Below, one piece after another: positions 1,771 through 59,362 of a stretch of DNA of 64,000 bases. The notes under the pieces were generated by a model. That model made no database searches. It was not told the origin of the DNA and was given only the letters and a program-made list of their open reading frames with translations. Origin of the DNA: Squalus acanthias. Lineage: Eukaryota. Within the stretch, counting starts at the first letter, position 1. The number at the start of each line of letters is the position of its first letter. The DNA lies in assembly GCA_030390025.1 (NCBI GenBank), contig CM059450.1, forward strand, positions 14,508,001-14,572,000. The letters are read 5' to 3'. A program made the position numbers and the translations under genes.

Positions 1771-3170
1771 TCATGTTAGCGGTTCCTGCTTTATGACACA
1801 CTTCTGCAAGATGATCCCAGTACTTTGTCCGGAAACCTTGTTGGAATTTAAAGTCACTATGTTCCCTCTGGAAGATGAAGTTCCTGGTTGCGGTTCATGT
1901 ACTACAGAGCTCGGAGCTGTGTAAATGTAGTTGAATCCTGCATTGTCTAACATGTCGGACCAGGCCCGGTACTGAAATTCAGCAGCTCCCCAGTAGTTTC
2001 TAATACTGGATTCTGAACGGTGGCCAGTAAGTGCCATGATCTCCCGTGCTCCGAGGCCGGCGTCGCACAGGAGACGAACAGTTGTAGTTCTGAGGGAATG
2101 GTTGGTGTACCTCTGGGAGAGTCTGGCAGCAATACTGATTCTAGGCATCATGCTTCCGAGATAATTTACTCCCATTGGCTCCCGCTTATACCAGACAGAT
2201 TGTTCTCGTAACTGCTCTGGCGTCAATTTTAGAGGGTGAAGGTAGAAAGCAGGAGGGTCTGGTGGCAGCTTGGATATATAAAGTTCAAGGGAGGTGACTG
2301 GGCAGTTTACATCTCCTGGCATATCGTACATCCGACCCAGTTTCAATGGGTCCTCACGGCTTCTACTTTTCCCAGTATATTTCAGCATTGCATAGCGTCG
2401 TCCATTGGGATCTCGCTTAATAACAAAAGCGTCCGGAGGGAGGTCCCGAAGGATTTCCCGTCCACGCTTGGCAAAGTGCAACTGCAGGTCAAACCAGACT
2501 TTGTTCACAAGTGCAAGGGGTGTGTGAAGTCCCAGGACACCAGAGGTTCTGATCTTTCGGAGGTCGGCCGCATTAATCGGGGGGTGGTGGTTTGTTTCAT
2601 CCTTCCCTTGCTTTCTTAGTATCTTAAGCACACCCAAAAACACATTATTGGCACTGCTGAATTCCTTATCCTGCATCAGGCAGATCTGCCGGCTGTGAGG
2701 AGGCATCTTAAGGTGCCTGTTTAAACCAGCCCGGATGGATTTGTAACTGGAAATGCTATAGGTGTTACCGTCATGATTCCTCACCGTGCCATAAAATTCT
2801 CTCAAAATACTATTAAGTTCTTCCACTGACATAGTTTCAAATTTTTCATCTCTGCCCTTTTCAATCAGCCACTGTTTTAGGATATTCACTGCCCAGTCTG
2901 TCTGCTTGCGAGTGTTCTTCTCGTTGCGCTCTTCCTCAAGCCCAATTAGATCCTCCTCGGTCACAGTAACGTGCCGCCTGGCTCCGTCTAAAAGCTCGTC
3001 GCTGGCAATTTGCTCCTCTGTCATTTGGTCCTCAAAACTTAGCAGTGTGTTGCCATCGAAAATGCCATAGGTGTAGAGTGGGGAGTGAGACGCTGTTTTT
3101 TCGGACAGCTGTGAATTGCGGAGTAATACGTAATGTTTTGATATAATGCTTAAAAATTTTTTTTTTAAAA
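1771..3170 (-). CDS. Module B: Crypton-type tyrosine recombinase (KCTD1-DUF3504-like lineage) with catalytic residues retained; putative alternative terminal exon of ATF7IP (internal ATG at 3024 gives the 417-aa ORF)
   Basis: Motifs NTRKQTDWAV, LREFYGTVR..DG..YS, SIRAGLNRHL..PP, TPLALVNKVWF, KRGRE, RMY..PG...CPV, WYKREPMGVNYLG, YTNHSLRTT, TGHRSESSIRNY. The frame is open upstream of the ATG to a phase-1 acceptor ggattattttgtttAG|TT at 3170, matching the phase-1 donor at 9609. Confidence 0.88.
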
Positions 3171-16735: not shown

Positions 16736-16851
16736 CTGCGACACTGCACACTACCAGAAGCACCAAGAGGGGGGTTGCAGGATTTGCTGGGAGAGACAGG
16801 TTGCGTAGACTGGAGTCCAGATGGTTGCTGAGATATCGAGATGGAAATACT
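16736..16851 (-). CDS. ATF7IP: ATF7IP exon (SISISISQQPSGLQSTQPVSPSKSCNPPLGASGSVQCR)
   Basis: PVSPSK resembles ATF7IP PVSPGK. Acceptor ttttttgttttgtccAG, donor CAG|GTAAGG; 116 nt, phase 0 to 2, compatible with both neighbours. Confidence 0.8.
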
Positions 16852-22775: not shown

Positions 22776-23015
22776 AAAAGAAAAAAAGACTTGCATTTAT
22801 ATAGCGCCTTTTACGACCTCAGGATGTGCATCACAGTCAATGAAGTACTTGAAGTGTAGTCACAGTTGTAATGTAGGAAACGCAGCAGCCAATGTGTGTG
22901 CAGCAAGGCTCCACAAATAACAATGCGATAATGACCAAATAATCGGTTTTAGCGATGCTGGTTGAGGGATAAATGTTGGCCAAAACACGAGGGAGAATTC
23001 CCCTGCTCTTCAAAA
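22776..23015 (-). mobile_element. Deu-SINE (SacSINE1-like) 3' half
   Basis: Homologous to 8066-8320 (aagacttgcatttatatagc...cccctgctcttc). Confidence 0.8.
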
Positions 23016-23016
23016 T

Positions 23017-23360
23017 AATCAAGCAGGCTGCTTTGTCTTGAATGGTGTCAAGCTTCTTGAGTGTTGTTGGAGTTGCACTCATCCAGGCAAGAGGAGAGTA
23101 TTCCATCACACTGCTGACTTGTGCCTTGTAGATAGATGGTGGAAAGGCTTTGGGGAGCCACAGAATATCCAGCCTCTGGATCTGCTCTTGTTGCCACAGA
23201 ATGTGTGTGGCTGGTCCAGTTAAGTTACTGGTCAATGGTGACCCCCCAGGATGTTGATGGTGGGGGGATTCGGCGATGGTAATGCCGTTGAATGTCAAGG
23301 ATAAGTGGTTAGACTCTTGCTTCTTGGAGATAGTCATTGCCTGGTACTTGTGTGGCGCTC
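23017..23360 (-). mobile_element. CR1-group LINE RT C-terminal fragment
   Basis: SNHLSLTFNGITIAESP, YKAQVSSVMEYSPLAWMSA, KKLDTIQDKAA: same family as 53260-54955. Confidence 0.85.
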
Positions 23361-25818
23361 TTAAGTTACTCTCTACATACCATAGGTTTGGGGTCATCAT
23401 AGCAACAAGAATCATTTGCAGAGCTAAATCCTTCACATCTTCACAATCATGTGACTATTGCTCTTCTGCACTTGGAAAAGTCCAGTTCTTCGGAGGATGC
23501 TGCATCGATGCTTCTATGTACAAATGCAATTCGGATGTGAAGCTTCAGGGCTCTGTCTTTTATGTACAAGAGTGCTTTGGGGAAGAAGCCTTGGAATAGT
23601 TTTCATGGTTTGGCATTTTTTTGAAAAAAAAAACTTGCAAGGAGTTTTGCAGAAAGCTAATATTTATCAAAAGCAGATCCACAATCAATGCCTAAGCTAG
23701 GAATGACAAAGGCAGCCTGAAAGACAGAGGTCTGTGGAGTCTGACTTTCTAAAGATGAGGCATCAAGATAAAACTGGACTTTGCTGCAATGATCCAACAT
23801 CTTGGTTTGAACTTGACAGATTCCGAGCCGTTACAGTCCCATTGGATCCATTGAGTTTACGTTGAGCATGGAAGACGAAACCAGTTCCAGTTCCAAACTA
23901 ATTCCAGTTAAACCTACTGACAATGCCCTTAAGAAAAGTGGCTTGGGAATCCTGAACAACCAGCTGGTCATGGTATTTCCTACCATTACGAAATGCCACT
24001 TTGAATAAGATCGCAATCTTGGCACTGAACTCTTTGGAGACTTGTCCTGACGGGCATCACCGCAATATTCAATGTTTCAACAATTTTCTGAGGATGAGGA
24101 TATCAACTCCCTGCTAATTAGATTCGGCATTCTCAGGGAACAGGACCCCATCTGCCATTCAGGGAGATGTGACTGATATATTAATGGTAGTGGGTCCAGC
24201 TTAGACTAGCTGCCATAATTAAAGTCTTGATAAGAATATTTGCAGTCGTGTGTGTGTGTGTGTGTATGTGTATGGGCATCTGAGCCTGGTATTTACTATT
24301 CCAATGCTAAGGAAAATATACTACTTACTGAACTGCCACTGTCCTTTATTGCTATGTCATGGAAGCCCCTGTTGCCTCTGGTAATTGTCCACCGATTTAG
24401 TCCTGCACTCCAGCAAAATAAAATCAGAGACGAACAAAAATAATTCTAACCCCACGTTCTCTGAAGATGGAGAGGTTGTCCAATTAGTGTTCTCATTGCA
24501 GTCCCTAGGAGCCTAAGCTCAACAGAAGGAGTACAAAGTTGCTTCTTTGCAGAAAGGCAATACTCTATTGCACCGATGCTTGATGATTTCAGTCTCTTGA
24601 GCCATTGGGAATTTCCTTTACTTTTAGGTAATTCATGTTGTGGAAATCTGAAGGAAAGGCTCAATTAGGAGTGACAATCCAATATGACTATTGTAGAAGA
24701 CAGGAGGGTTTTCAGAGTGGGGGGATTGAAACAGCACTGAAAAATGCCACAAAGAATGAGGAAGTGACTTAGCTCTGTTCAAACTGTCTCGGAAGAATGA
24801 GGTATCTGCATTTCCTTGTCCTATTAGTATGCCAACCGTACCCATCTTCCATGGAGGGCAGAAAATGATTGGAGCATCACATTCATCTTTATCGCCTCAA
24901 TGGCAAAAGTTGAAAGAAGTTAAACGTTTAGCAATGTAGCTGACCTGCAGTGAAACCAGAAATGCCAACAGCGGATTTTTAAACAGAACTGTTGGGGCCA
25001 CAGAGAGGGGAACTGTAGGAAGGAAGGGACGAGGGATTTGCAACATGCACCACCTCCTAAAGCATTCCCAATCAAGATTCCTCAAGATGGTTCCTGTCTG
25101 CGTATAAAAAAAAATACATGATTGTAGACGTATTGAGACAGGGAGCTAGAGCAGCTATTGAACAGAATGGATGAATAAAAGCAAAACTAGGAGAACTACT
25201 CTTCAACAGGCATAGCTAACCGAACAAACACTTGGAAATTATAAGTCATTATTCACTTTTTACAGCTAGAGCTTGCACAGAAACACCATGAAGTAAAAGA
25301 CCAATCTTTTCTCAAAACTATTGCAGTAAGAGGAATGACGCAAGTTAACAAAGACATATTCATTTTGTTAGGCAAATCGGAATAAAATCCAATGGACCAT
25401 ATTGATAGGCTTTAATCATTTTTTAATTATATGAGGACACAGGCTAACAATTTGTTATTAAAATTTAGTTTCTTATTAGACGTGAAATCTCCAGAAATCA
25501 AAGGACAAAAAAATAACTTAGTGTTACTGACAACCACACACACACACACACACACACACACGAGAATCAATTAATAGCATAACAGGATAAAAGAAAGTGC
25601 TTTGAAAGAATCATCTTGCAAACTTACTGAAACATCTTACACTGAAGACGAGTGCAAAATACTACTTTAAAATGGTTGCATTGTCCCCAGCCTCCCTCTC
25701 CACTCCCCAGTTCTTGCAGCCTCTTCCAGGTTGGAGGTTAAGTAAGGAACTTCAACACAAATACTGCTGCGTACTGAGAAATCAGGAGGCACACCACATC
25801 AGTTTTCCCCCTCGTCAG

Positions 25819-25824
25819 TTTATT
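25819..25824 (-). terminator. Candidate polyadenylation signal AATAAA for module A isoform
   Basis: Plus-strand tttatt at 25819-25824, about 43 nt downstream of the stop codon. Confidence 0.45.
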
Positions 25825-25866
25825 GTTTTATATTCTTACAATCTAATATGACGGAGTCTTTTTGCA

Positions 25867-26235
25867 CTACTGGAAGATTTTAGCAGCACAATAGGATGAT
25901 GATGCTGCAACTTTGACAGAAGACATTGGTAATGTTGAAGGTGTACTACAAGGCAGTTCAACCTTCACCAATCCTTCCTGGTTCGTAAGCACTGCTTCTG
26001 GCTGGGTGACTATGTTCACTGCTTCTTGTGCACAAGCACTTTGCTGTCTCAAGGAAGAAGATGACTGTGAACAAGCTGGGATCTTCTTCAAAGGATTTGG
26101 AGGCTGCAAACAGTCAGACACTGCCTTCATTTGAGTCTTTTTGTAGGACATCATTGCATTACTGCCATTTCCCATTCGTTCCTTAATTAGCTCTTCATCA
26201 AAGCCACGACTGTGAAGGGCAGCTACACTGCTGAC
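25867..26235 (-). CDS. Module A exon 2 (terminal): C-terminal end of the YR domain plus low-complexity tail
   Basis: Acceptor ttttgttgtAG|GTC at 26235 (phase 0) gives VSSVAALHSRGFDEELIKERMGNGSNAMMSYKKTQMKAVSDCLQPP, the expected continuation after HTGQSGR (Crypton pattern HSLR.T....L...G.DEQLI.ERTGHRS.A...YK). TAG at 25867-25869. Confidence 0.82.
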   Translation of the reverse strand, partial: VSSVAALHSRGFDEELIKERMGNGSNAMMSYKKTQMKAVSDCLQPPNPLKKIPACSQSSSSLRQQSACAQEAVNIVTQPEAVLTNQEGLVKVELPCSTPSTLPMSSVKVAASSSYCAAKIFQ

Positions 26236-29200
26236 CTACAACAAAATGAATACACACAAAAAAGAAAAATAAGCCTGTGTAGATGAACAAGTCACTGGGG
26301 TTGTGCAGACAGGCTGGATTTCGGATATTGGTCGTTAAGATTTTTTCATTTGATGACCACTGAGGCATTGTTGATTTAAACTGCGTCAGAATGGATTTCC
26401 TTCTTACAATTTGGGCTTTTGAAATTGGGGTGAATTCAATTAAGACTTGGAAGGTTACTGCAGAGTAGCGGCACTTTTGGTTTGGTAGAATGAATGCAAT
26501 GCCCCACTGGTCTGCCATACCACAAACTGGGAGAGCCACCTAGGAAATCCAAACCTTTAATGCATCCCCCAATACAACAAAGGGTTTACAAAAACAATAG
26601 TAGCAACAGGATTACCCAAAATTTGCAAGTAAGGATCCACACCCCACCAGAGAAATAAACATTTTGCCAAAATATCTCAAGTAGTGAATTCCTGTTAATA
26701 TCATGTTGACTTGAGTAAACTAAAAGGGGACACAAATGCAACAGTGTGAAGTGACAGTAACAGGATTTCACCTATACAATAGATTTCCCTCAGAGATACA
26801 TCCAACACATCCTAAATTCTCTGAACAGCGAGTCAGATCACTTTCGCAATGACTCATCATTGCAGTTTCGTGGAGCATAAACTGTCATCTAGCACTGACA
26901 AAAAAAAACCCAAGTTTGTGAAAACTAAGTACAAAGTGAATGTGCCACATAGATTAAAAAAGTGACTAAAAAAAAAAATGGACACAAGGGATGTAAAAAC
27001 TGGGATTAAAAGTGACTAAATAGAATTTAATTTAGGGGCAAGGGAAACAGCATGAAGGCTTTATTGTGGGTAACCCAAGGGCACAGATATATTCACCATT
27101 TAATTCAAAATTTTATAAAAACAACAAGGCCCAAAAAGTATGCCGTGGCATCACTTCCATTCCGAATTTTTGGGGTTTGCCCATTCAAATTCTATAATAA
27201 CAGTGTTGCATCTAAGTTAATAACATCATATTCTACTCTCGTGTGTTTAGTAGCAGTAAGGTCCTTGAATCTGGTCAAAATAAATTGAGAGTTTGATCCA
27301 GTCTGTTTTCAATTACATTGTCTTGCTGCAACATTACAATCTGCACGCCAGTCCAGCAAGTCCAATTGTTTACAGGCCCAATGAAGCCAGAACTAATGGA
27401 TTTCAACTACAGTGCAAGACAATTTTGTCCTTGCAACTCCAATTTGACTATTGAGCTTTTTTTTCTTAAACACGAATCCATTTGGAATTTGACAATCACA
27501 TCAGTGCTCCCAGAAAGCCTAAACAACTCAGTGAAAGCCACACAATGCAGTCAAAAATCACCATCATAGAAAGGGAAAACAAAATATTAAAACACTGCAG
27601 AATTTACCAATAGTTGACAAAAAAATCTCTTCAGTAACTTGAATACTAAAGGGCCATCAACAAGAGTCCCCTTCTCCTGCCCCATCCCAAAAAAAGGAAA
27701 AACATCTTTCCGAGAAATAGTTGCATGCTTGGTTACACTGATTAAATCTTCCCAAGTCAATTGGCGCTGGTCAAATATAAATGCAAAGTTATGAGCTGGG
27801 GCTTGGGATTGAAAGAGTTTGAATTCTCTCAGTGGACAACTTTATTTTATTCAATAAAAATGGTCGGTACAATTCTATTCAGAGAAAAGTCAACCATTTC
27901 TGTTGTTGAATGTTTCGGTCCAAGGTGAATTAAATTCTGTTTTGTAACAAACACACAAAAGACCAGCCTCCTCTATAATGCCATTTCTGTGGGTTGGACA
28001 ATAATGCGGAGATATACACATGCTAAAAAAAAGTGTGCCTGTGGGCTTATGGGCATGCTACAATTGGTGTTGCTTGCTGGTAGCCAAGTGGGAAACTTCT
28101 GGTAGAATTTCAGTTTTGCTAATTACGATCTTAGCCACCTGGACAATGTTGCTGTCCACTGATTATAACAACAGCTTAGCAACCGATTGGTCAATCCTGC
28201 TCATCCAATCTGGTTCATTATGCTAGTTAAAAAAAAAGAGCCAGATAGTAATAGCGATAGCCGCTCGGAAAATAGTTCAGTCGGGTGCAGTGTCTGTGTG
28301 GTCATTTCCTATCAGAAAGTTTCACAGTTGGGGTGCGGAAGCAAGAGGATGAAGGAAGTTACATTGATGGTTGTTTACATCATTACTGACTGGCGATAAA
28401 CAGTATAAAAAGGGCTGGGGTCTGTCACAGTATTATAGCGAGGGCTTATTGTATACATAGTTATGATGGGCAATTTATCAGAGACAGAGAGCTGCAAGTA
28501 CAGCACCCGGCATTTTTTTTTTATTCAGTTGCACTAGCCGGGAGAATGTGGTGCAGCCCACTTCAGATCAGCTTTGTTGAGATCAAATACTAAGATCAAA
28601 GTTCGCTGCCACTTTAGTATATAACTTTAACATGACTACAGATGCATTATTTTAACATTGTTAAACCCTGGGGGAAAATCCTTTGGCAATTTGGATGATG
28701 ATCTCAAGGCTCCACTGTATTAACATCAATAAACCACTAGTACCAAGTATTAAAGATGTTTTTTTGAAGGTCAAATGACAAAGTTTCCCTCAATTTCTGA
28801 TTCGAACGCTAATGGTCATTGTAAACGAAAATACAAATCCATAAAGTGGAAGTTAAATCGCTCGAGTTTCAAAAAAAATATAAACAATTGAAGTGTTGGT
28901 GTGCTTTGAATTTTATTCTGTATGGATAAACATTTAGGTCTGGAAATATTAAACTATGAAAATAAGGGGATCAGCCACAGTTTAACGTGCAAGAGCACTC
29001 AGTTAGTGATGGCATGTACCCTGTACCGTCAGATTAAATAAACTGCTTTCACCTACAAACGCTTAGTATCTGCAGCCACACTATACTGCCTGAGAGACCG
29101 AACAATGTTGAAATATTAATGTTCTCAGGCTTTGCACAAGCCTTCCCGCTTCAGCGCTAGAGGCCTTCTGTGAGCTATGGTAACAGTGAAGGATCTGCTC

Positions 29201-29746
29201 GGGTTGGAAGGCAGATATAGCGGGTCTTCCAACCTATTCAACAGGTCACATCTTGAACACAGTAAGAGTGTGGATGATAAATGACCTTGCAGCCCACTGA
29301 AGCTCATCTCTTTAGCACCCCAACTGCCCCATCCTGCTGCATTTGGAAAGCCTGTTTCCTCCTCCTACCTTGCCTGGCAGTTTATCCCAGAATTTATCAC
29401 CCTTTGCAAACACGTTCTTCCTAATAGCAGTTTTAAAATTATACCTCCCCATTCAAGCTCATGTCCTCTGGTCCTACGAACCCATTCTGCTTTAAACAGA
29501 ATTCTGGGTTTAATATTTTACATAACTCAGTGAGGTTCCCTCCTTAATCGTCTGTAAAGTTTGACCAGAATAAGTCAGAACCCAAATTTTCATTTGTTGA
29601 AAATGTATTCTTTTGGTAAAGTTAATCAAATTCTTCATTAAATTTCTGAATACATTGCAAGAAATGCAATCTAAAAGAGAATCCACTTTGGACCTTAATA
29701 TAGGTGAGCCCATTTAAAAGATCCTTGCCAGTCAAAAACAAGAATC

Positions 29747-29910
29747 TCATAGAATCATAGAATGGTTACAGCACAGAAGGAGGCCATTCGGCCAGTCGAG
29801 CCCGTGCCGGCTCTCTGCAAGAGCACTTCAGCTAGACCCACTCCCCCACCCTTTCCCCGTAGCCCTGCGAATTTTTTTCCTTCAGGGACTTATCCAATTC
29901 CCTTTTGAAA
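29747..29910 (-). mobile_element. CR1-type LINE 3' tail
   Basis: catagaatcatagaatggttacagcacagaaggaggccattcggcc; homologous to 7757-7900. Confidence 0.7.
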
Positions 29911-31378
29911 TCTGAAAACTTTTGCTGCTAAGAGGCAGTGGCTGCACATAGGATATGTTTACAATAATGCTTATTGCAATGATCAAAGAGGGACTTAATC
30001 TGTCAACTTTGAATTAATCTAGCTGCCCGGTCAACATTGCCCTCACCTACTGAAATCGCATTAACTAGAAAGAAACTGCCGCAGTAACAGACACAATCGA
30101 TGGATGGCTCACACACACCTGTGTAAATCACTACCTACTCAAAACCTAACATGTGAAAAGCTCACAGTGGGAGGAAATAGGCTCAGGTTTGTAATCTAGC
30201 TGGTTGTATATGAATCTGGGGTTGCAACACTGATATTCTGAGTTGATTCTCTGAATGGTGTCATACACTTAAATAAGCCCACATTCTCACTGAAGCAAAG
30301 TGCACAAAATTCTGTTCGGAATCCTGATCAAGTCTCATCCCAGCTGAAATAATCTCAAAGAAATCTGGCTACCAGTGTGTATTGGGAAAGATTTCCCCAC
30401 CCCGCCCCCACGCTCCCCTCTGCATCGACAACCATCATCTCCTCATTGTGGAAGCAGGCAGTAATTACACAGGTATAATCTCTCCAGTGATCAACCGTGT
30501 CTGTTACTAGAGTAAATTTACTTCCGGCTGGACACAAGCTGTACAATCAATTCCAATAGGATCTTGACCTCAATGCTTGAAGGTGCCCTGATCCACTTGT
30601 AGCACAATCTCAACAGGATCCTCATTTATAATCAACGTCCTTTAGCTTTATGAAGTTGGTCTCTCAGGGCTTCACCGTTATTAGACAACTATGGCATCAT
30701 TTTTTTGGTGGGAAGTTCAGAGAAAAGCAGATGGCATGTGGTAGAATTTCAGCCTATTGGTTGTAAATTCAAGCCCCAGGGCTGCCCGTCATTAACCATG
30801 TTGCAGCTGGGCGAGACTCCTGAACCACTGGAAGGAGCAAGGTGCAGAAATGAGCATTCCTATTGGAAAGGTGGGAGAGGGGGGGGGGGGGGGGGGGAGA
30901 AACGGGAAGAGTAGACGAATGACATCATCTGACAGCCTGCTTGAATATTACCTCCCACTGGATAATCTTGGGTCGCACTGAAGGCATTCCTCGGAAATTT
31001 GCAGCCCAAGTCTGAATCTGGCCTATGAGCAGAAGTAGCAAAGTTGTGGGAGGCAGCAGAACCAGCGATCGGGGTTAAAATGGGCAACGAAAAAAAAAGG
31101 GGCAGAGGTAATAAAATGAAATACAAAACGGTACAATACAACTTTATAAAATTGTTCTTCCAGTTCACAATTGTGTAAAAACCTAGGCTTTGTCACTTGA
31201 CCTTTAAAAATAGTGAGAATGCATGAGACAGTAATTTAGCATTAAAAAAAAAGTGCCTGTGCTGGGTTAACTTCTACACACAGACTGTTAAATGCATTAA
31301 AATGCACAGTATAGATAATAGGAAGTAAAATGTCTATTGTCTTTGCAACATTAATAATAAAACACTGTTTATACTTAC

Positions 31379-33646
31379 CCTTCCAGATTGGCCAGTGTGG
31401 CGTCCTGAAATGTCACCCGCCTCACAGATTTCTTTGGAGTACCGCTCCAGAGTGTGAACTCCTATAGCCTGCTGGCAGAACTCCAGCCGTCCGGGAAGTG
31501 GGCGCCGGTAAAACGGACCGTCGCTGGGAACCATGCTGAGGTAGCGACGGAAGACAGAAACAATACATCGCGGGTTGGACAAGTCTGCATACTGCCGAGT
31601 GTGTCCTTTAGTCCTCTGGATTCCATCTCGGTATGGCTTTGCCACAAACTCCAAATATTCCCCAATTTCATCAGCTCCAAAGGTAAACTGATCGACCATC
31701 AATTTATTGTGCTCGGCTGCTGCGTGTACACCAAAGACTTTGCAGAGGTAGAAATAGACAGCGTAACTGTAACTTTTTGCATCTCGAAGTTGAAAAACTA
31801 TTTGCCACAGTTTTTCTTCTTCTTCTTCGGTGTAAGGCTGTGCTTGTTTCCTTACAGTACCAATCCCCTGTTGTTTAAGTTGTTTCATCTGCCTGTCAAG
31901 GACAGTCCGAAACTCAGTATACTCCACGTTATATTTGTTAAAGAAATCAATGTCCAGTCGCTTGCAGGTTTCACGCAAGTATCGCAAGATGGAGCAGCAC
32001 AGGAGACGGAGAGAATTAGGTGGGTAAAATGATCCATCTTGCCGACGGACTTCCTCCACAAAGTGGCACAACCAGAAATTCAGTTCATCATGACTTATTT
32101 CATGAGACAGTATTGGCACATAAAGGAACGACTCATCGCATTTCATACTATTTTCCATGAGGTAGTTATTCCGGTTTTTAGCCCACTCATCCCAAGCTCG
32201 AACGCCCCAGGCTGTGGCTCTCTTTGTATTGTAGGGAATTACGCTATCTTGTATAATCACCCGTTTTCTGTTGTCCGGAACAGGCTCACAAATGTCTTTG
32301 GGGGCCCGTTTAACTGGCAGTGAAACCCGCTGCTCCACAGCAGGTCCATCAAACCCATTATAGGGAGTTCTACTCTCTTGTAACACTGTTTGTTGATTCT
32401 CTGCAGTTGTCACTCCAAACGCATTGCACGGAGTCTTATTCTCTCGAAATATTACACATGGCGTACCTGCATCAGGCTCACCAAGGACAATAGAGGGAGT
32501 CTTACTCGCATGTAGTGTTACATGTTGCTGTTCTGTACCAGGCTTTCCAGAGGTACTATTGGGGCCATTACCCTCTTGTAAAAGAACCTGCTTTTGCTTG
32601 ACAAGCGTACTATCATAAACCTGTGGCTTCTCTGTAGATAACTGGACAAACATACTCTTGGAAGTTCTACTGATTCTTAATGGAGCCTCATGCTCCTTCA
32701 CTATGGCGTCCCCAAATGAGTTACAGCGAGTTCGATTATCTATTAACGCAACCTGATGCTTATCTGTAGTGGATTTGTGATTAATACTTAGAGTTCTATT
32801 ATACTGTAATAGTGCCTGTTGTTTTAATGCAACAGCTTTGCCCAATTCAGCAGAAACCCTACAATCCTGCAGTGGAACTTCCTGCTTTAGCAAAGGCTTA
32901 CCGGATCTATTCTCTTGTAATGCAACTTGTTGATTGTGCAATGCACTTGTTGGGTCTGATGGAGACAGAGTTCCATTATGCTGCAGTGGAGCCTGTTGCT
33001 TTAATGCAACAGGGTTGCCTGATGATATTCGACAATCCTGCAATGGAACCTTATGCTTTAAAATAGGTCTATTATGTAATGCAATTTGCTGCTTCCCGAC
33101 AGCAGACTTATTATGCAGAGATCTATTGTGCTGCAATGCAATTTGTTGCTTTAATGTAACTGGCTTGTCTGGCGCAGCAGAAAATCGACAAGCACGTAAT
33201 ACAGCCTCTTGCTTCGCTGGAACGGCCTCAACACAATCATGGGCGGCCAGACTCTCATGCAGTGTAGCCTGTTTTTTTGTGATGGGGTTATCAAATGTAT
33301 TATAGACTATTTTACTGCCGTGTATCATAACTGGTTGCTTGTTTGCAACAGGTTTAGCAAGCGTGTCAGATGGAGCTCTACGGTTGTGTAATGAACTCTG
33401 TCGTTTCTTTGTAACAGGCTTGTGAAAAGTAATATAGACCATCCTATTATCTTGAAATAGAACCCCTCTTTTTTCCACAGCAGGTTGGCTGCATGTATTC
33501 CAAGAAATCCTACTATTCTGCAGTGGAACCTGTTCCGTTTGCACAGTGGACTTGCCAAACTGGTGTTTCTCATTTTTCTTTGCCAACTTGAACTTCTCTT
33601 TGTTGCTCAAATCAAATTGCATTTCTGGTTGAAAAGGTGCAGGAAT
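31379..33646 (-). CDS. Module A exon 1: ~22-aa repeat array plus N-terminal and core part of a Crypton-type YR/DUF3504 domain (KIAA1958/QRICH1/ZMYM-like); putative alternative exon of ATF7IP
   Basis: Part of the 808-aa ORF 31334..33760. Crypton-like motifs: IPYNTKRATAWGVRAWDEW, ELNFWLCHFVEEVRRQDGSFYPPNSL, EFRTVLDRQMKQL, EEEEKLW, RCIVSVFRRYLS, PFYRRP, IGVHTL. In-frame acceptor ttcttctgtttctttgtctcAG|ATT at 33646 (phase 0); donor AGG|GTAAGT after 31379 (phase 0). Confidence 0.85.
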
Positions 33647-35331
33647 CTGAGACAAAGAAACAGAAGAACCTGCCAGTAAAGCCAGTGAACCTTCTTCAAA
33701 ATTTAGGGCAAGACAAATATGATTAAATTGTGTTCCTTTTTTGAGTTTGAATTGATCCAATGAACAACTGACTGTTTTGGGTGGTGGCAGAAGGATACAG
33801 AGAACAAACCATCTAGTAATGGAGCAGAATTCATCACTACTTCAGCACACCACCTGTAGAGTCTGGGGCAATACAGCACCTGTTAAACAATATTGCAGCT
33901 AGCAGTTTGTTTCACTGAATGTACAGCGCCGCCCCTGTTGAAAAGCAGTTTCCACAATAAAATGAGGATTACAACGAAGCACTGAAACTTCAGAGCCCTG
34001 GTAATGAACCAAGGGCTGGCTCATTGTTCATTTTCAGGATCAAGGGGCATTAGTCATTTCCCACCACTCACATCTCTATCTACAAGGTAAATCCTAATCT
34101 GATTGCACTCCTGGTTAGAAAGAATGCCCGCCCAGGATTCTGATTCCCTGACAGCTGCAAACAAAGCTTTGATATCCGTGTCAGAAGCACAGGCCACGAA
34201 TAGTGCAGGCTTGCTACAGCCCCAGAGGGGAGTCTCAACCTCATAGAAACCCATGACATTTGTTACACCCTCCGATCATACAGTTGGGAATTAAATTCCA
34301 TATACTATGTGCTTCTGGCGTGTATACCTCTATTATTGTCCAAAGAGTGCCCATGAATCATAAAACAGGTACATCACAACTCGTAATATACATTATCCAA
34401 ATCACAAAATTTCTGTAATCGTCTCTTACTCACTTTAAATACCAGCTTTTTCAGAACAGTGTTTCATTGGATTTAAAAAAAGAACTTTGCTCACTTACTT
34501 GAGTTAAACGGACTTGTCTCATCCTGTTCAGTGATGCCATAGCAGTGTCACTAGATGTCAACGAATGAAGGCTGTCAAGTCATTGTGACATCAATAACTT
34601 ATCGATCACGGGAGGAAGAGGAAAACCAGGCTGCTTTTCCAGGGTCCTTACAGACTCGAGTTTAGTGCACCAGGAGTTTAACTGGGGCCTCAAGAGCACT
34701 CTAGGTTTGGCAGATCATCCAATCAAATGCTGTAACCCCCGTGTGCATAGTCCTGAAGCCGGAGATGCATTTCTCCGCAGGGCACTTGGAAATCGACTCA
34801 TTGGGTTTTTTCAATGTGTTCAACACTCACTGCAAAAACAATTCTGTACTCCTTGCAAATCTGTACAGCTAAGGCAGACTGCAACTGTATAACTACAGTA
34901 ATAAACGAGGAGGGACAATCCTGATAATAAAGGTGGTTCAACACACACAGAATTATTGCCCTGGAAATCCATCAGAGTTAAAAGTAATATGGTTCCAAAA
35001 TTCTGCTTATGACAGCAACTCCTAAAGTTTAAATGTTATCTTTAAGTATTTGGACTCCCCATGTCCACACTTCATGTGAACCCCATCTTCCATCTTGGGG
35101 AGTATATAGAGGAGCAAATACTTCATTTTGTTACGGAATATTTCACAAAGTCAAACTATTTTTAATTTTCATAAGTAAATCAAACTACGTTATAGCATAA
35201 TGCAGCTAAATTAAATTTCAACCTGAAAAATGTTTTTTTTTTTTTAAATGAGTATACTGAAGCCTGAAGAGGTTCACTGCGCTGTTGGAAAATTGAGGAG
35301 CTCTCCTAGCTCCCAAAATGCTGGCTGGACA

Positions 35332-35483
35332 GTGGGCGTGATTACTGAGCCCATACAGAATGGTGACTGGGCAGTGGGCGTGATTACTGAGCCCATACAG
35401 AATGGCGACTGGGCAGTGGGCGTGATTACTGAGCCCATACAGAATGGCGACTGGGCAATGGCTGTGAACCCTGAGCCCATACA
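35332..35483. repeat. 42-bp minisatellite, 3 full copies plus 1 partial
   Basis: Unit gtgggcgtgattactgagcccatacagaatggYgactgggca. Confidence 0.95.
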
Positions 35484-41103: not shown

Positions 41104-41184
41104 CTCTTGTGCTTTCTTCAAGGCAGAATCATTGCGAGCTTGATTTGCTGATCCTAGCCTCTTCTCTATCTGCATTAGTTTTGC
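41104..41184 (-). CDS. ATF7IP: ATF7IP exon (AKLMQIEKRLGSANQARNDSALKKAQE), end of coiled coil
   Basis: Continues ...LQ|AK like ATF7IP AKIARLTKRF. Acceptor ttttctgcAG, donor GAG|GTAGGT; 81 nt, phase 0/0. Confidence 0.85.
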
Positions 41185-43408: not shown

Positions 43409-43546
43409 CTGTAAGCCACTGATTAAAGATTCATGCCTCGTGTTGCATTCAATTTTTTCTACTCTGTTTTTCAGCTCTGCCAGCTTCTTGTCGAAAACAC
43501 CACTCTGCATGGAGCTGATGCGCTCTTCAATGATCTGCTGAACGAT
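43409..43546 (-). CDS. ATF7IP: ATF7IP exon, SETDB1-binding coiled coil (IVQQIIEERISSMQSGVFDKKLAELKNRVEKIECNTRHESLISGLQ)
   Basis: Strong similarity to the ATF7IP conserved domain 1 (VFDKTLAELKTRVEKIECNKRH). 138 nt, phase 0/0; acceptor tttttgtgcAG; non-canonical donor CAG|GCAAGT. Confidence 0.93.
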
Positions 43547-46866: not shown

Positions 46867-47012
46867 CTTCTCCAGCGTCTGGCGGATCTCCCCTCTGGCA
46901 GTGATCTTCACTTTTAAGGCAGCCTCATATTCATCTCCAGAAAACCGACACCGCTTGGATATACTGCTTTCCATGTCTTCAGACTTGGACCTTTTTCGTG
47001 GCACAACTTCAT
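46867..47012 (-). CDS. ATF7IP: ATF7IP exon (EVVPRKRSKSEDMESSISKRCRFSGDEYEAALKVKITARGEIRQTLEK), NLS-like basic stretch and start of the SETDB1-binding region
   Basis: Matches the vertebrate ATF7IP motif RKRSKSEDM...EYEAEFQVKITAKGDINQKLQK. Acceptor ctttgcAG, donor AAG|GTATGT; 146 nt, phase 1 to 0. Confidence 0.93.
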
Positions 47013-51081: not shown

Positions 51082-51132
51082 TTGGTTCTTGCTTTTGTCT
51101 TGTGTCAGCTGCTTGCTCTTTGTGGTCTGAAT
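51082..51132 (-). CDS. ATF7IP: ATF7IP small coding exon (DSDHKEQAADTRQKQEP)
   Basis: 51-nt phase 1/1 exon, acceptor ttctgcttcatAG, donor A|GTAAGT. It keeps the frame between neighbours but sequence conservation is weak. Confidence 0.65.
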
Positions 51133-53259: not shown

Positions 53260-54955
53260 AGTGCAAAAGACAAGGCTGAATGAAGCGTTTCCAACCATCT
53301 TCAAACCAGCAGTGCCAAGTGGATGATCCATATCGGCCTACTCCGGAGGTCCCCACCATCACAGAAGCCAGTCTTCAGCCAATTTGATTCACTCCACGTG
53401 ATATCAAGGAACGGCTGAGCGCACTGGATACAGCAAAGGCTATGGGCCCCGACAACATCCCGACTATCGTGCTGAAGACTTGCGCTCCAGAAGTAGCCGC
53501 GCCTCTAGCCAAGCTGTTCCAGTACAGCTACATCACTGGCATCTATCCGATAATGTGGAAAACTGCCCAGGTATGTCAAGTCCACAAAAAGCAAGACAAA
53601 TCCAACCCGGCCAATTACCGCCTCATCAGTCTACTCTCAATCATCAGCAAAGTGATGGAAGGCGTCATCGACAGTGCTATCAAGCGGCACTTACTCACCA
53701 ATAACCTGCTCACTGTTGCCCAGTTTGGGTTCCGCCAACACCACTCGGCTCCAGACCTCATTACAGCCTTGGTCCAAACATGGACAAAAGGAGCTGAATT
53801 CCAGAGGTGAGGTGAGTGTGACTGCCCTTGACATCAAGGCAGCATTTGACCGAGTGTGGCATCAAGGAGCCCTAGTAAAACTGAAGTCAATGGGAATCAG
53901 GGGGAAAACGCTCCACTGGCTGGAGTCATACCTAGCACAAAGGAAGATAGTTGTGGTGGTTGAAGGTCAATCATCACAGCCCCAGGACATCGCTGCAGGA
54001 GTTCCTCAGGGCAGTGTCCTAGGCCCAACCATCTTCAGCTGCTTCATCAATGACCTTCCCTCCAACATAAGGTCAGAAATGGTGATGTTCACCGATGACT
54101 GCACATTGTTCAGCGCCATTCACAACTCCTCAGATAATGAAGCAGTCCATGCTCGCATGCAACAAGACCTGGACGACATTCAGGCTTGGGCTGACAAATG
54201 GCAGGTAACATTCACGCCACAGAAGTGCCAGGCAATGAATATCTTCAACAAGCAAGAGTCTAACCACCTCCCCTTGACATTCAATGGCATTACCATCGCC
54301 GAATCCCCCACCATCAACATCCTGGGGGTCACCATTGACCAGCCACATAAATACTGTGGCAACAAGAGCAGGTCAGAGGCTAGGTATTCTGCGGCGAGTG
54401 TCGCACCTCCTGACTCCCCAAAGCCTTTCCACCATCTACAAGGCACAAGTAAGGAGTGTGATGGAATACTCTCCACCTGCCTGGATGAGTGCAGCTCCAA
54501 CATTCAAGAAGCTCGACACCATCCAGGACAAAGCAGCCCGCTTTATTGGCACCCCATCCACCACCTTAAACATTCACTCCCTCCACCACCGGCACACCGT
54601 GGCTGCAGTGTGTACCATCTACAAGATGCACTGCAGCAACTCGCCAAGGCTTCTTCGGCAGCACCCAAACCCGCGATCTCTTCCACCTAGAAGGACAAGG
54701 GCAGCAGGCGCATGGGAACACCACCACCTCCAAGTTCCCCTCCAAGTCACACACCATCCTGACTTAGAAGTATATCGCCGATCCTTCATCATCGCTGGGT
54801 CAAAAATCCTGGAACTCCCTCCCTAACAGCACTGTGGGAGCACCTTCACCACACGTACTGCAGCGGTTCAAGGCAGCGGCTCACCACCACCTTCTCAAGG
54901 GCAATAAATGCTGGCCTTGCCAGCGACGCCCACATCCCATTAAAAAAAAATAAAA
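53260..54955 (+). mobile_element. CR1-group LINE, 5'-truncated, frameshifted reverse transcriptase
   Basis: GPDNIP, NPANYRLISLLS, QFGFR, LDIKAAFDRVWH, GVPQGSVLGP, FTDD (YADD-type); frameshifts near 53790 and 54340; A-rich tail at 54942-54957. Confidence 0.93.
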
Positions 54956-58257: not shown

Positions 58258-59362
58258 CTGGACTATCATTTTTTGGTACCAGCTCTTCACTTTCTGTTTG
58301 ATTCTCAATTATTGGCTCATCCTCGTCTGATAAGACGAGGAATGCCTCCTCTGGCAAGTTGCCATTGCACTCCTCTTTTGGAGAACTGCTTGGAGAGGTG
58401 TCCATCTGCTCGTCCTGCGGGTCTTTCAATGGACTGTCCTTTGGCGACGGGGAATCCACTGCAGGAACAATGTCTTGCATACTGGATAGCTCATTGTCTT
58501 TCTCTGGGGCCAATTTCTCCAAAATAGGGATTATTTCTTCTATTTCCAGTTGGCTCTTCCCACCCGATTTGTTCTCACTTAATTTGTCTTTTGTTGCAAT
58601 CTCACTTTCAGTCTCTGCACACTCCATCTTAGAGCTTTCACAATCATTTTTCTCCTGCACAGATTCTATGCTACTTGTAATTGCCTCTTCACTAATGTCC
58701 AATGATCTTTCGTGGTCTTCCTTTTCTCTCACAGAGGAAGAGGAAGACTGTAACTTAAGGCTACTTTCATCTGGTACTTCCTGACTCCTGCTGTCACCAA
58801 CAGAAGGTGATTTTTCCTCTTCTGAAAGGCTCTGGGAATCAGTACATGATTTATCTGCAATTAAAGAATCCTGCTTCAACTCGACAGACTCTGGTTCCAC
58901 AACGTCATCTCCTTTGCTCTCAACATCTACCGAAACTTGGTTTCCCGCACTCCCAGTGGAAATCTGTTCATCTTCAGCAACTGGGGGTGTTGAGTCCATT
59001 TTTTCATCTTGTGGGCTTAAGTCCTTATCTTCATTAAGACATTTTTCAGCAAAGCTTAGTTCAGGTGTTTGTGTGATACTAAGTTCATCAATAGGGTTGC
59101 CTTGCAGTTCCTCTGGGCCCAGCCTCACATCATTAATGCTATCAATGTCTGTATCATCCATGCAGTTAGTATTTAGTGAGGCTTTGCCGTCAGAATCTCC
59201 GTTTTCATGTCTACCGTTACACAGTTTAGTTTTGGTCTCTTCATTTGCCTTTAAAAGCTCCTCTCTGCTTTTATAGATAGCCTCTAGCTGTTGTCGGTCA
59301 CTTGCGCGCATTGTTTTTCTGGCCTTGAAGACTTTTTTTGGAAGCTCTTCACTGGTATCCAT
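58258..59362 (-). CDS. ATF7IP: ATF7IP/MCAF1 first coding exon (acidic, low-complexity N-terminus); exon begins at 59372, ATG at 59362
   Basis: MDTSEELPKKVFKARKTMRASDRQQLEA matches the characteristic ATF7IP N-terminus, and EEAFLVLSDEDE is also conserved. Acceptor ttttcAG at 59373-59374; donor CAG|GTATGC after 58258; 1105 nt, ends phase 1. Confidence 0.93.

Follow-up and report, generated by a model that had tools for sequence, protein, structure and literature searches.

The domestication of Crypton transposons has been described for a number of genes. According to the survey of Kojima and Jurka in 2011 (PMC3212892), KCTD1b, KIAA1958a/b/L, ZMYM2/3/4, QRICH1 and WOC share a dead recombinase domain under strong constraint, and KCTD1b and KIAA1958 make use of alternative exons. 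The published ATF7IP Crypton, which lies in a gene for a cofactor of SETDB1, was described there and by Frith in 2022 (PMC9004415); the accessible 2011 text gives no transcript for it. Here we describe a second Crypton-derived element in the same gene, module A, found in a 64,000-nucleotide stretch of the genome of the shark Squalus acanthias (contig CM059450.1, positions 14,508,001 to 14,572,000, forward strand). This whole stretch is referred to as the window, and positions are counted from its first letter. In our judgement, module A very probably supplies elasmobranch ATF7IP, as a real product, with two alternative last exons, which are joined in frame after the complete SETDB1-binding coiled coil and replace the FN3 domain.

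Two further bodies of work bear on this arrangement. Human ATF7IP binds SETDB1 through residues 574-666, with two ATF7IP copies per SETDB1 held by a coiled coil (PMC12167477). The FN3 domain is a recruiting hub for ZMYM2, MGA, ZNF518A and MBD1; it is dispensable for SETDB1 binding, and its loss weakens silencing (PMC7706265). ZMYM2 is itself a DUF3504 gene (PMC3212892). The KRAB-transposase fusions and SETMAR resemble module A in their in-frame splice to a chromatin-regulatory host domain, their use as an alternative isoform, their acceptor from captured sequence and their purifying selection (bioRxiv 10.1101/2020.05.07.082677). Module A differs from them in its donor, which would already have been a domesticated gene, in its tyrosine recombinase fold, and in its host domain, the SETDB1-binding coiled coil. 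That survey covers tetrapods, and neither 'Crypton' nor 'ATF7IP' occurs in the accessible main text.

Splicing of module A within ATF7IP

The window covers most of the shark ATF7IP gene, whose last five coding exons lie beyond its left side, and the closest named proteins come from squalomorph sharks. Module A is placed in ATF7IP intron 6, on the same strand, and comprises the following features:
31379..33646 (minus strand): module A exon A1, 756 codons; linker, then recombinase-fold domain from 32236; covered by contigs in four of four runs
32237..33646 (minus strand): A1 linker, ~470 aa of degenerate 22-aa repeats, predicted to be disordered, differing in length between species
26236..31378 (minus strand): module A intron, 5,143 nt, GT-AG, phase 0 at both ends; spliced out in a contig of run X1
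25867..26235 (minus strand): module A exon A2; last domain helices to 26083, Tyr codon at 26145-26143, tail, stop at 25867
25302..25866 (minus strand): probable module A 3' untranslated region, with AATAAA at 25824 and ATTAAA at 25427 and 25416; contigs reach 25652, 25570 and 25302, and the exact end is not fixed

The original prediction, made from the letters alone, held that tyrosine recombinase similarity stops at an AGG|GTAAGT donor at 31379 and resumes at a phase-0 acceptor at 26235, and the sites, the intron length and the phase were all verified. The donor reads GGA AGG|GTAAGT on the minus strand, with 31379 as the last exonic base; the acceptor is a long pyrimidine tract followed by GTAG|GTC AGC, with 26235 as the first exonic base. 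Against a profile of 353 positions, built from 38 intact non-vertebrate relatives only, the unspliced frame matches positions 3-297 with 322 bits and the spliced frame positions 3-346 with 359 bits, so that splicing extends the alignment from position 297 to 346, as the original prediction expected. The site at 26235 was the top scorer among 100 open AG candidates in or just past the intron (359.2 bits, with the runner-up at 327.9, a lead of ~31 bits). The join is identical in all seven orthologous database proteins, which show 92-100% identity over the 51 domain residues of exon A2.

At the other end, the stop-to-stop frame around A1 is 835 aa long and has a good phase-0 acceptor at 33646. 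The 808-aa open reading frame named in the original prediction does exist, but only with a TTG start at 33760, which we discarded as an artefact of the bacterial code; the true 5' boundary is the acceptor at 33646 or an ATG at 33622. The linker encoded from here is periodic, lags of 22 and 44 scoring best (-0.10, with a shuffled maximum of -0.43).

Four runs in contig form (X1, X2, X6 and X9), whose RNA nature is a guess, were compared, and the exon 5-6 joint of ATF7IP is present in all of them. Junction 31379>26235, for which a check on RNA had been suggested, is crossed by an X1 contig of 1,579 nt that links 25652-26233 to 31377-32373, placing the predicted A1-A2 join within a 2-nt ambiguity. 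It is thus seen directly in one of the four runs and is implied in X6 and X9, whose contigs end at the junction with unplaced letters. The start of record 20 of X6 coincides with the acceptor 33646, and 29 of its letters are unplaced, so the joint from exon 6 to A1 is implied in one run of four. Contig depth in these data gives neither isoform ratios nor a ranking of genes.

The host exons in the window, whose numbering we take by analogy from the human gene, are:
58258..59362 (minus strand): ATF7IP exon 2, the first large coding exon, located by tblastn of named shark ATF7IP proteins
51082..51132 (minus strand): ATF7IP exon 3
46867..47012 (minus strand): ATF7IP exon 4, where ATF7IP_BD (PF16788) and the SETDB1-binding coiled coil both begin
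43409..43546 (minus strand): ATF7IP exon 5, coiled-coil core
41104..41184 (minus strand): ATF7IP exon 6, coiled-coil end; its phase-0 donor (41104) is usable for module A and for canonical exon 7
16736..16851 (minus strand): canonical ATF7IP exon 7, with a phase-0 acceptor (16851), the competitor of A1

The exon 6 donor and the A1 and exon 7 acceptors are therefore all of phase 0. Database models joining exons 2-6 to A1 and A2 exist for Heptranchias, Heterodontus, Mustelus, Scyliorhinus canicula and the skate Rhinoraja, a set that takes in both squalomorphs and galeomorphs besides the skate. In a sample of 36 chondrichthyan ATF7IP-type proteins, the end is module A in seven, the published Crypton (module B, below) in three, FN3 in 25 and none of these in one; no protein has two ends. 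The fusion keeps the first half of PF16788. Judged from the spacing of C612 and C631, the human SETDB1-binding segment would map to shark residues 412-504 (exons 4-6), and exon 6 ends at residue 508. The original prediction of a domesticated, non-catalytic DUF3504-type domain was supported, whereas the alternative 3' end of ATF7IP, the copying from a stand-alone gene and the separate Crypton lineage had been missed. Of the features that define host-transposase fusions, module A shows the in-frame splice to a host domain (phase-0 sites, models in five species) and purifying selection.

Some other observations were made along the host gene. Intron 5 has a donor of the GC type (GCAAGT, 43408-43403, minus strand), used in the exon 5-6 joint of all four runs. 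A 42-nt tandem repeat of ~4 units lies at 35314-35481, in intron 6 upstream of module A. Fragments of a reverse transcriptase of the long interspersed element type, found by eye, occur in introns at 53388-54826 (plus strand) and 22837-23454 (minus strand); they are ~90% alike and oppositely oriented. In the ATF7IP models of Mobula, Hypanus and Narcine, small exons that give Pfam hits of the transposase helix-turn-helix type are inserted past exon 10 or upstream of exon 2, and these may be further capture events or exonised young repeats.

The recombinase domain, its proposed parent gene and its relatives

The first point to note about the domain is the state of its active site. The substitutions read in the original prediction, GLRG>GVHA (R>H), HSLR>QSGR (H>Q) and TGHRS>MGNGS (H>N), with the second Arg and the Tyr remaining, are present in eight of eight module A orthologues. 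A Lys conserved in 43 of 53 relatives is also lost, and on general recombinase anatomy, with a loose alignment of the loop, we take this residue to be catalytic, which makes four of six positions gone. Where active Cryptons have R-K-H-R-H/W-Y, all eight orthologues have H, gap, Q, R, N, Y. The second Arg (R2) may not be a kept ancestral residue, because of the 53 relatives 32 have Lys and 18 Arg at the same position. A wider count of the nearest Crypton-like relatives likewise often has Lys there: of the 87 that have the motif, 52 carry K and 35 carry R, their other residues being intact. The paralogue described below has C, N, H, R, P, Y in nine of nine sequences. The Tyr is present in 8/8 module A and 9/9 paralogue sequences, at the spacing of the nearest intact relatives, and a relative from the coelacanth Latimeria lacks it. 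From these residues, the module A domain would almost certainly be catalytically dead.

The domain is nevertheless well preserved. Identity to the seven orthologues is 84-98% in the A1 part and 92-100% in the A2 part, compared with 48-83% in the linker, and the domain is the better conserved of the two in every one of the seven. The ratio of non-synonymous to synonymous substitution (dN/dS) is ~0.11 over 337 codons, a rough value since it is based on the paralogue and dS is near saturation (1.85). That module A is spliced and under selection we hold to be virtually certain. The predicted structure of the S. torazame orthologue (P0006) has a predicted local distance difference test score mostly >85 over residues 380-734, with three helices supplied by A2 and a disordered linker. 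The fold is that of a two-lobed tyrosine recombinase (Cre, Z 16.2, root-mean-square deviation 7.1 over 276 aligned residues; Xer, Z 16.1). Conservation, dN/dS and fold all agree with the earlier view of a long-domesticated, non-catalytic domain kept by selection.

By both fold and profile the best solved homologue is QRICH1 in the Zincore-DNA complex (PDB 9hjt), which was the top Foldseek match (E 2e-8), followed by Cre; the profile match has an E-value of 2e-28. QRICH1 differs from module A in sharing just 17-21% identity, in lacking the last recombinase helices, which A2 supplies (the match ends at profile position 308 of 433), and in not being fused to ATF7IP. In their accessible text, PMC13538652 and PMC13383152 merely cite Zincore.

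The shark's own genome contains one paralogue of module A, 69% identical in the domain, at G000:C3:112480870-112486743. It is an uncharacterised two-exon DUF3504-type gene encoding 508 aa, with a 4,350-nt intron at the same codon position as that of module A, and it lies in antisense orientation in a gene that we take from its motifs to be BMPR2-like, with the ligand-domain exon on one side and the kinase exons on the other. A scan of the genome with PF12012 missed this gene. At an identity of at least 90% its family has 20 members, and the 15 that were listed are all uncharacterised shark or ray proteins; no chimaera protein of either module A or the parent gene was seen among the matches listed (five of the 20 members being unlisted). 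A Latimeria protein is 49% identical to module A.

Traces of the paralogue's coding sequence are found around the A1 acceptor:
33551..33720 (minus strand): parent-gene 5' coding remnant, spanning the A1 acceptor; 69% identity over 108 nt

This alignment to the paralogue's first codons reached a local score of 150, with a maximum of 82 in 300 shuffles. At the acceptor itself, the parent codons TCT CCA ATT face TCT CAG|ATT in module A. The codons flanking the intron are also common to both, and no similarity was found between the two introns, nor in the flanks beyond the exons and common repeats. The linker-repeat profile had no match in the paralogue, and it is the DNA alignment only that points to the parent's spacer as the origin of the 22-aa unit. 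Because the acceptor DNA aligns with the paralogue's first codons, we infer that module A arose as a DNA-level copy of the stand-alone gene into ATF7IP, the direction being deduced, with an acceptor probably made from coding sequence. The shared intron, the tree and the species range would place the copy in intron 6 before sharks and rays split.

The intron itself somewhat more likely than not came with the transposon, as is hinted by the gene calls of the four nearest relatives, a sister clade with support of 100/98, which stop 4-27 residues past the motif, just where the shark intron lies. Among 36 metagenome loci of more distant relatives, 29 were without the motif; the seven with it all read through without an intron, and an AAG|GTAAC-type sequence stands at the site in two.

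Membership among the Cryptons was addressed with two trees, a quick one of 77 of 95 rows (18 partial domains were dropped) and a careful one of 44 chosen rows under a simpler model, in which ZMYM and QRICH1 were not included. The careful tree pairs module A with the paralogue (100/99), adds Latimeria to the pair (100/99) and then the four invertebrate or unnamed proteins (100/98); these non-vertebrate, Crypton-like relatives mostly have intact motifs. The KCTD1 (L089), KIAA1958a (L088) and KIAA1958b (L003) exons of the shark's own genome, named by way of the PMC3212892 supplement, fall outside this clade, as does L004, whose KIAA1958L-like label is a guess, and module B falls beside KCTD1. On this sequence-based tree, the module A family groups with invertebrate Cryptons and not with KCTD1, KIAA1958 or module B. 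It is a lineage separate from the domesticated DUF3504 genes placed in the tree, and it keeps R2 and the Tyr, which the published DUF3504 genes have lost (PMC3212892). Identity to the genome's own KIAA1958-type exons is 28-30%.

The domain scores 28.6 bits against PF12012 as a protein and 31.3 bits in the genome scan (cut-off 29.7), and is above the cut-off for PF25561 (62.5, cut-off 30.8). With module A as the query, no match fell on any multi-exon DUF3504 locus of the genome. Module A has one intron, just past the PF12012 region; two intron positions inside DUF3504 are common to ZMYM2/3/4, QRICH1 and WOC. Orthology to ZMYM or QRICH1 appears unlikely. By DNA, copies were confined to this locus and the one 70% paralogue, with four protein matches, all lower bounds, and no bounding repeat of at least 40 nt surrounds module A, shorter ends not having been searched. 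No phage match was found, and an atlas search returned only generic DUF3504/integrase clusters of cnidarians and molluscs. Module A as an active Crypton, as KCTD1, as KIAA1958 or as the published ATF7IP Crypton was ruled out by residues, tree and gene structure.

As regards the other genes, the KIAA1958a and KIAA1958b exons are both present in this shark (G000:C1, 124.87-124.90 Mb); isoform b was not detected among cartilaginous fish in the accessible text of PMC3212892, where chimaera only was sampled. The KCTD1 DUF3504 exon lies at G000:C1306:3433-3885, on a 36.6-kb contig.

The published ATF7IP Crypton is also in the window:
1771..3108 (minus strand): module B, which follows exon 10 as an alternative last exon without introns and retains R, H, R, H and Y

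The two modules have in common the host gene and strand, an origin from a Crypton recombinase, and a modelled role as an alternative last exon replacing FN3. Module B, however, is sister to KCTD1 and reaches amniotes, whereas module A comes after exon 6, contains an intron and a linker of repeats, no longer has four of the catalytic residues, shares ~25% identity with module B and belongs to another clade. Module B may be an active recombinase fused to the SETDB1 cofactor, to judge by its residues. The shark and ray sequences that were compared agree with one another at 94-99% identity in this module, and ATF7IP fusion models containing it come from sharks, rays, turtles and birds. The segment of module B that surrounds the HSLR motif recurs at 882-971, ~800 nt downstream of the module's stop, as a copy of 90 nt with 97% identity.

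Competing explanations

Several observations weigh against the fusion or its proposed role. The joint from exon 6 to A1 is absent among the 15 joints listed, with 42 more unlisted, and was not directly seen. Contigs in three of the four runs (X1, X2 and X9) continue unspliced upstream beyond 33646, and those of X2, which has only unspliced contigs at these sites, traverse both ends of the 5.1-kb intron; the runs, moreover, are merely guessed to be RNA. The fusion models are automated RefSeq annotation whose read support was not seen, and in two of seven species, Pristiophorus and S. torazame, the module A models are stand-alone. Module A proteins were returned for just these seven species, fewer than for the parent gene, and none came from a number of annotated elasmobranchs in which the parent gene is present, such as Chiloscyllium, Carcharodon, Pristis and Mobula, through loss or missing annotation. 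The dN/dS is rough, as said above. Finally, the domain is only mildly basic, with K+R 48 and D+E 42, compared with 50/37 and 51/34 in two intact relatives.

An internal transcription start near module A may exist besides the fusion, as contigs run upstream of the acceptor. Taken further, module A could be mainly a nested stand-alone gene with a promoter inside intron 6, starting at ATG 33622 (870 aa) and having a parent-like role, the ATF7IP fusion being a minor by-product. We consider this unlikely. The contigs unspliced out to 34016, 33793 and 33868 and the two stand-alone models speak for it, as does the N-terminus of the S. torazame model, which matches 34021-33874 (minus strand). Five of seven orthologues have the Met; Mustelus has Leu instead and the Rhinoraja model lacks the residue, and the in-frame exon 6 fusion is modelled in five species. 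The contig depth of module A in X9, 39-102 compared with 29.9 at the exon 5-6 joint, is a weak hint in the same direction, since depth cannot rank genes. Against a nested gene stand the X6 contig that starts exactly at the acceptor and the parent gene, which is still present and at least 90% conserved. The segment at 33874-34021 (minus strand) has a possible donor near 33880 and is a candidate alternative first exon or internal promoter.

If the fusion is real, it might still act as a decoy or scaffold, titrating SETDB1 or entering the 2:1 ATF7IP:SETDB1 trimer without FN3, its dead domain serving as a protein-binding surface, as in the QRICH1 coregulator complex, and possibly relieving silencing. 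Two-copy binding through the coiled coil (PMC12167477) and the weaker silencing without FN3 (PMC7706265) would fit, as would the loss of catalytic residues that contact the DNA backbone and the closest solved homologue, QRICH1, being bound to SEPHS1. A simple decoy, however, would have no need of a two-lobed fold preserved in full, Tyr helix included, at 84-100% identity, and we regard the idea as improbable. A domain that still cuts or recombines DNA with an altered active site is very improbable indeed: R2 and the Tyr are kept in both paralogues, the Tyr at its usual spacing, and the published DUF3504 genes have all lost both (PMC3212892), but R1, Lys, H2 and H3 are replaced in module A and R1, Lys and H3 in the paralogue, and the Latimeria relative has no Tyr. 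Recombinases are crippled when R1 and Lys are lost. The idea of a neutral transposon fossil whose splice sites are due to chance, to which the patchy annotation across species and the low contig depth in three runs might point, is hardly credible and already largely refuted, given an open frame and junction kept from sharks to skate, a domain conserved far above its linker, the dN/dS and the splicing that was seen. Our preferred reading is a selected fusion, and we cautiously lean towards one that would target SETDB1 silencing to chosen DNA.

Proposed history and significance

The history we propose begins with an ancient Crypton that was domesticated as a stand-alone two-exon gene, today antisense in the intron of the BMPR2-like gene. 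A DNA copy of it would have landed in ATF7IP intron 6 before the split of sharks and rays, where a change in its 5' codons presumably created the phase-0 acceptor; the altered sequence is at hand, and the order of events is deduced. The spacer would then have expanded through the 22-aa repeats. Splicing from exon 6 to A1 to A2 is predicted to yield a protein of ~1,390 aa with the ATF7IP N-terminus, the whole coiled coil, a flexible linker and the dead recombinase domain, and no FN3. Its coiled coil would still bind and stabilise SETDB1, the recombinase clamp on its long flexible tether would substitute for the FN3 hub and hold the complex on DNA, directly or via a DNA-bound partner, and H3K9 methylation would be directed to the clamp's own sites without DNA cutting.

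The interest of module A is limited, as there are published accounts of domesticated Cryptons, of the other ATF7IP Crypton and of transposase capture, automated fusion models stand in RefSeq, and the function of module A is deduced. What is apparently new is a second Crypton-derived ending of ATF7IP, together with an apparently undescribed Crypton domestication in jawed vertebrates, whose parent gene is at least 90% conserved in sharks and rays and has a coelacanth relative. Our literature search found no account of a second ATF7IP Crypton, of module A or of the parent family, although subscription journals, Repbase or the supplement of the bioRxiv survey could hold one. The word 'shark' does not occur in the accessible text of PMC13465315. 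The CKVF motif is absent from the accessible alignment supplement of PMC3212892, which is weak evidence, and two further chimaera Crypton contigs listed in that paper could not be matched to sequence.

It appears that the same silencing gene has captured this kind of transposon protein twice, and by a two-step route in the case of module A: domestication, copying, then capture through a new splice site. As a tentative idea that we would not rate as likely, ATF7IP in jawed vertebrates might be a plug-in SETDB1 adaptor with interchangeable ends, namely FN3, a possibly active Crypton recombinase (module B) and a dead elasmobranch one (module A), the recombinase ends reading DNA, perhaps the ends of recombinase-type transposons, and bringing H3K9me3 there. 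The aiming of SETDB1 at particular DNA depends on adaptors, and the role of domesticated DUF3504 domains is largely open. Here a single gene presents the recruiting end in three natural versions on an unchanging SETDB1-binding body, two of them from independent Crypton lineages, one of these dead and the other retaining its catalytic residues, and the three-ended ATF7IP is thus a ready-made experiment on DUF3504 function. If the proposal is true, cartilaginous fish would have a KRAB-independent way of aiming transposon silencing that uses the DNA-binding clamps of the transposons themselves and that selection would have favoured twice in the same gene.

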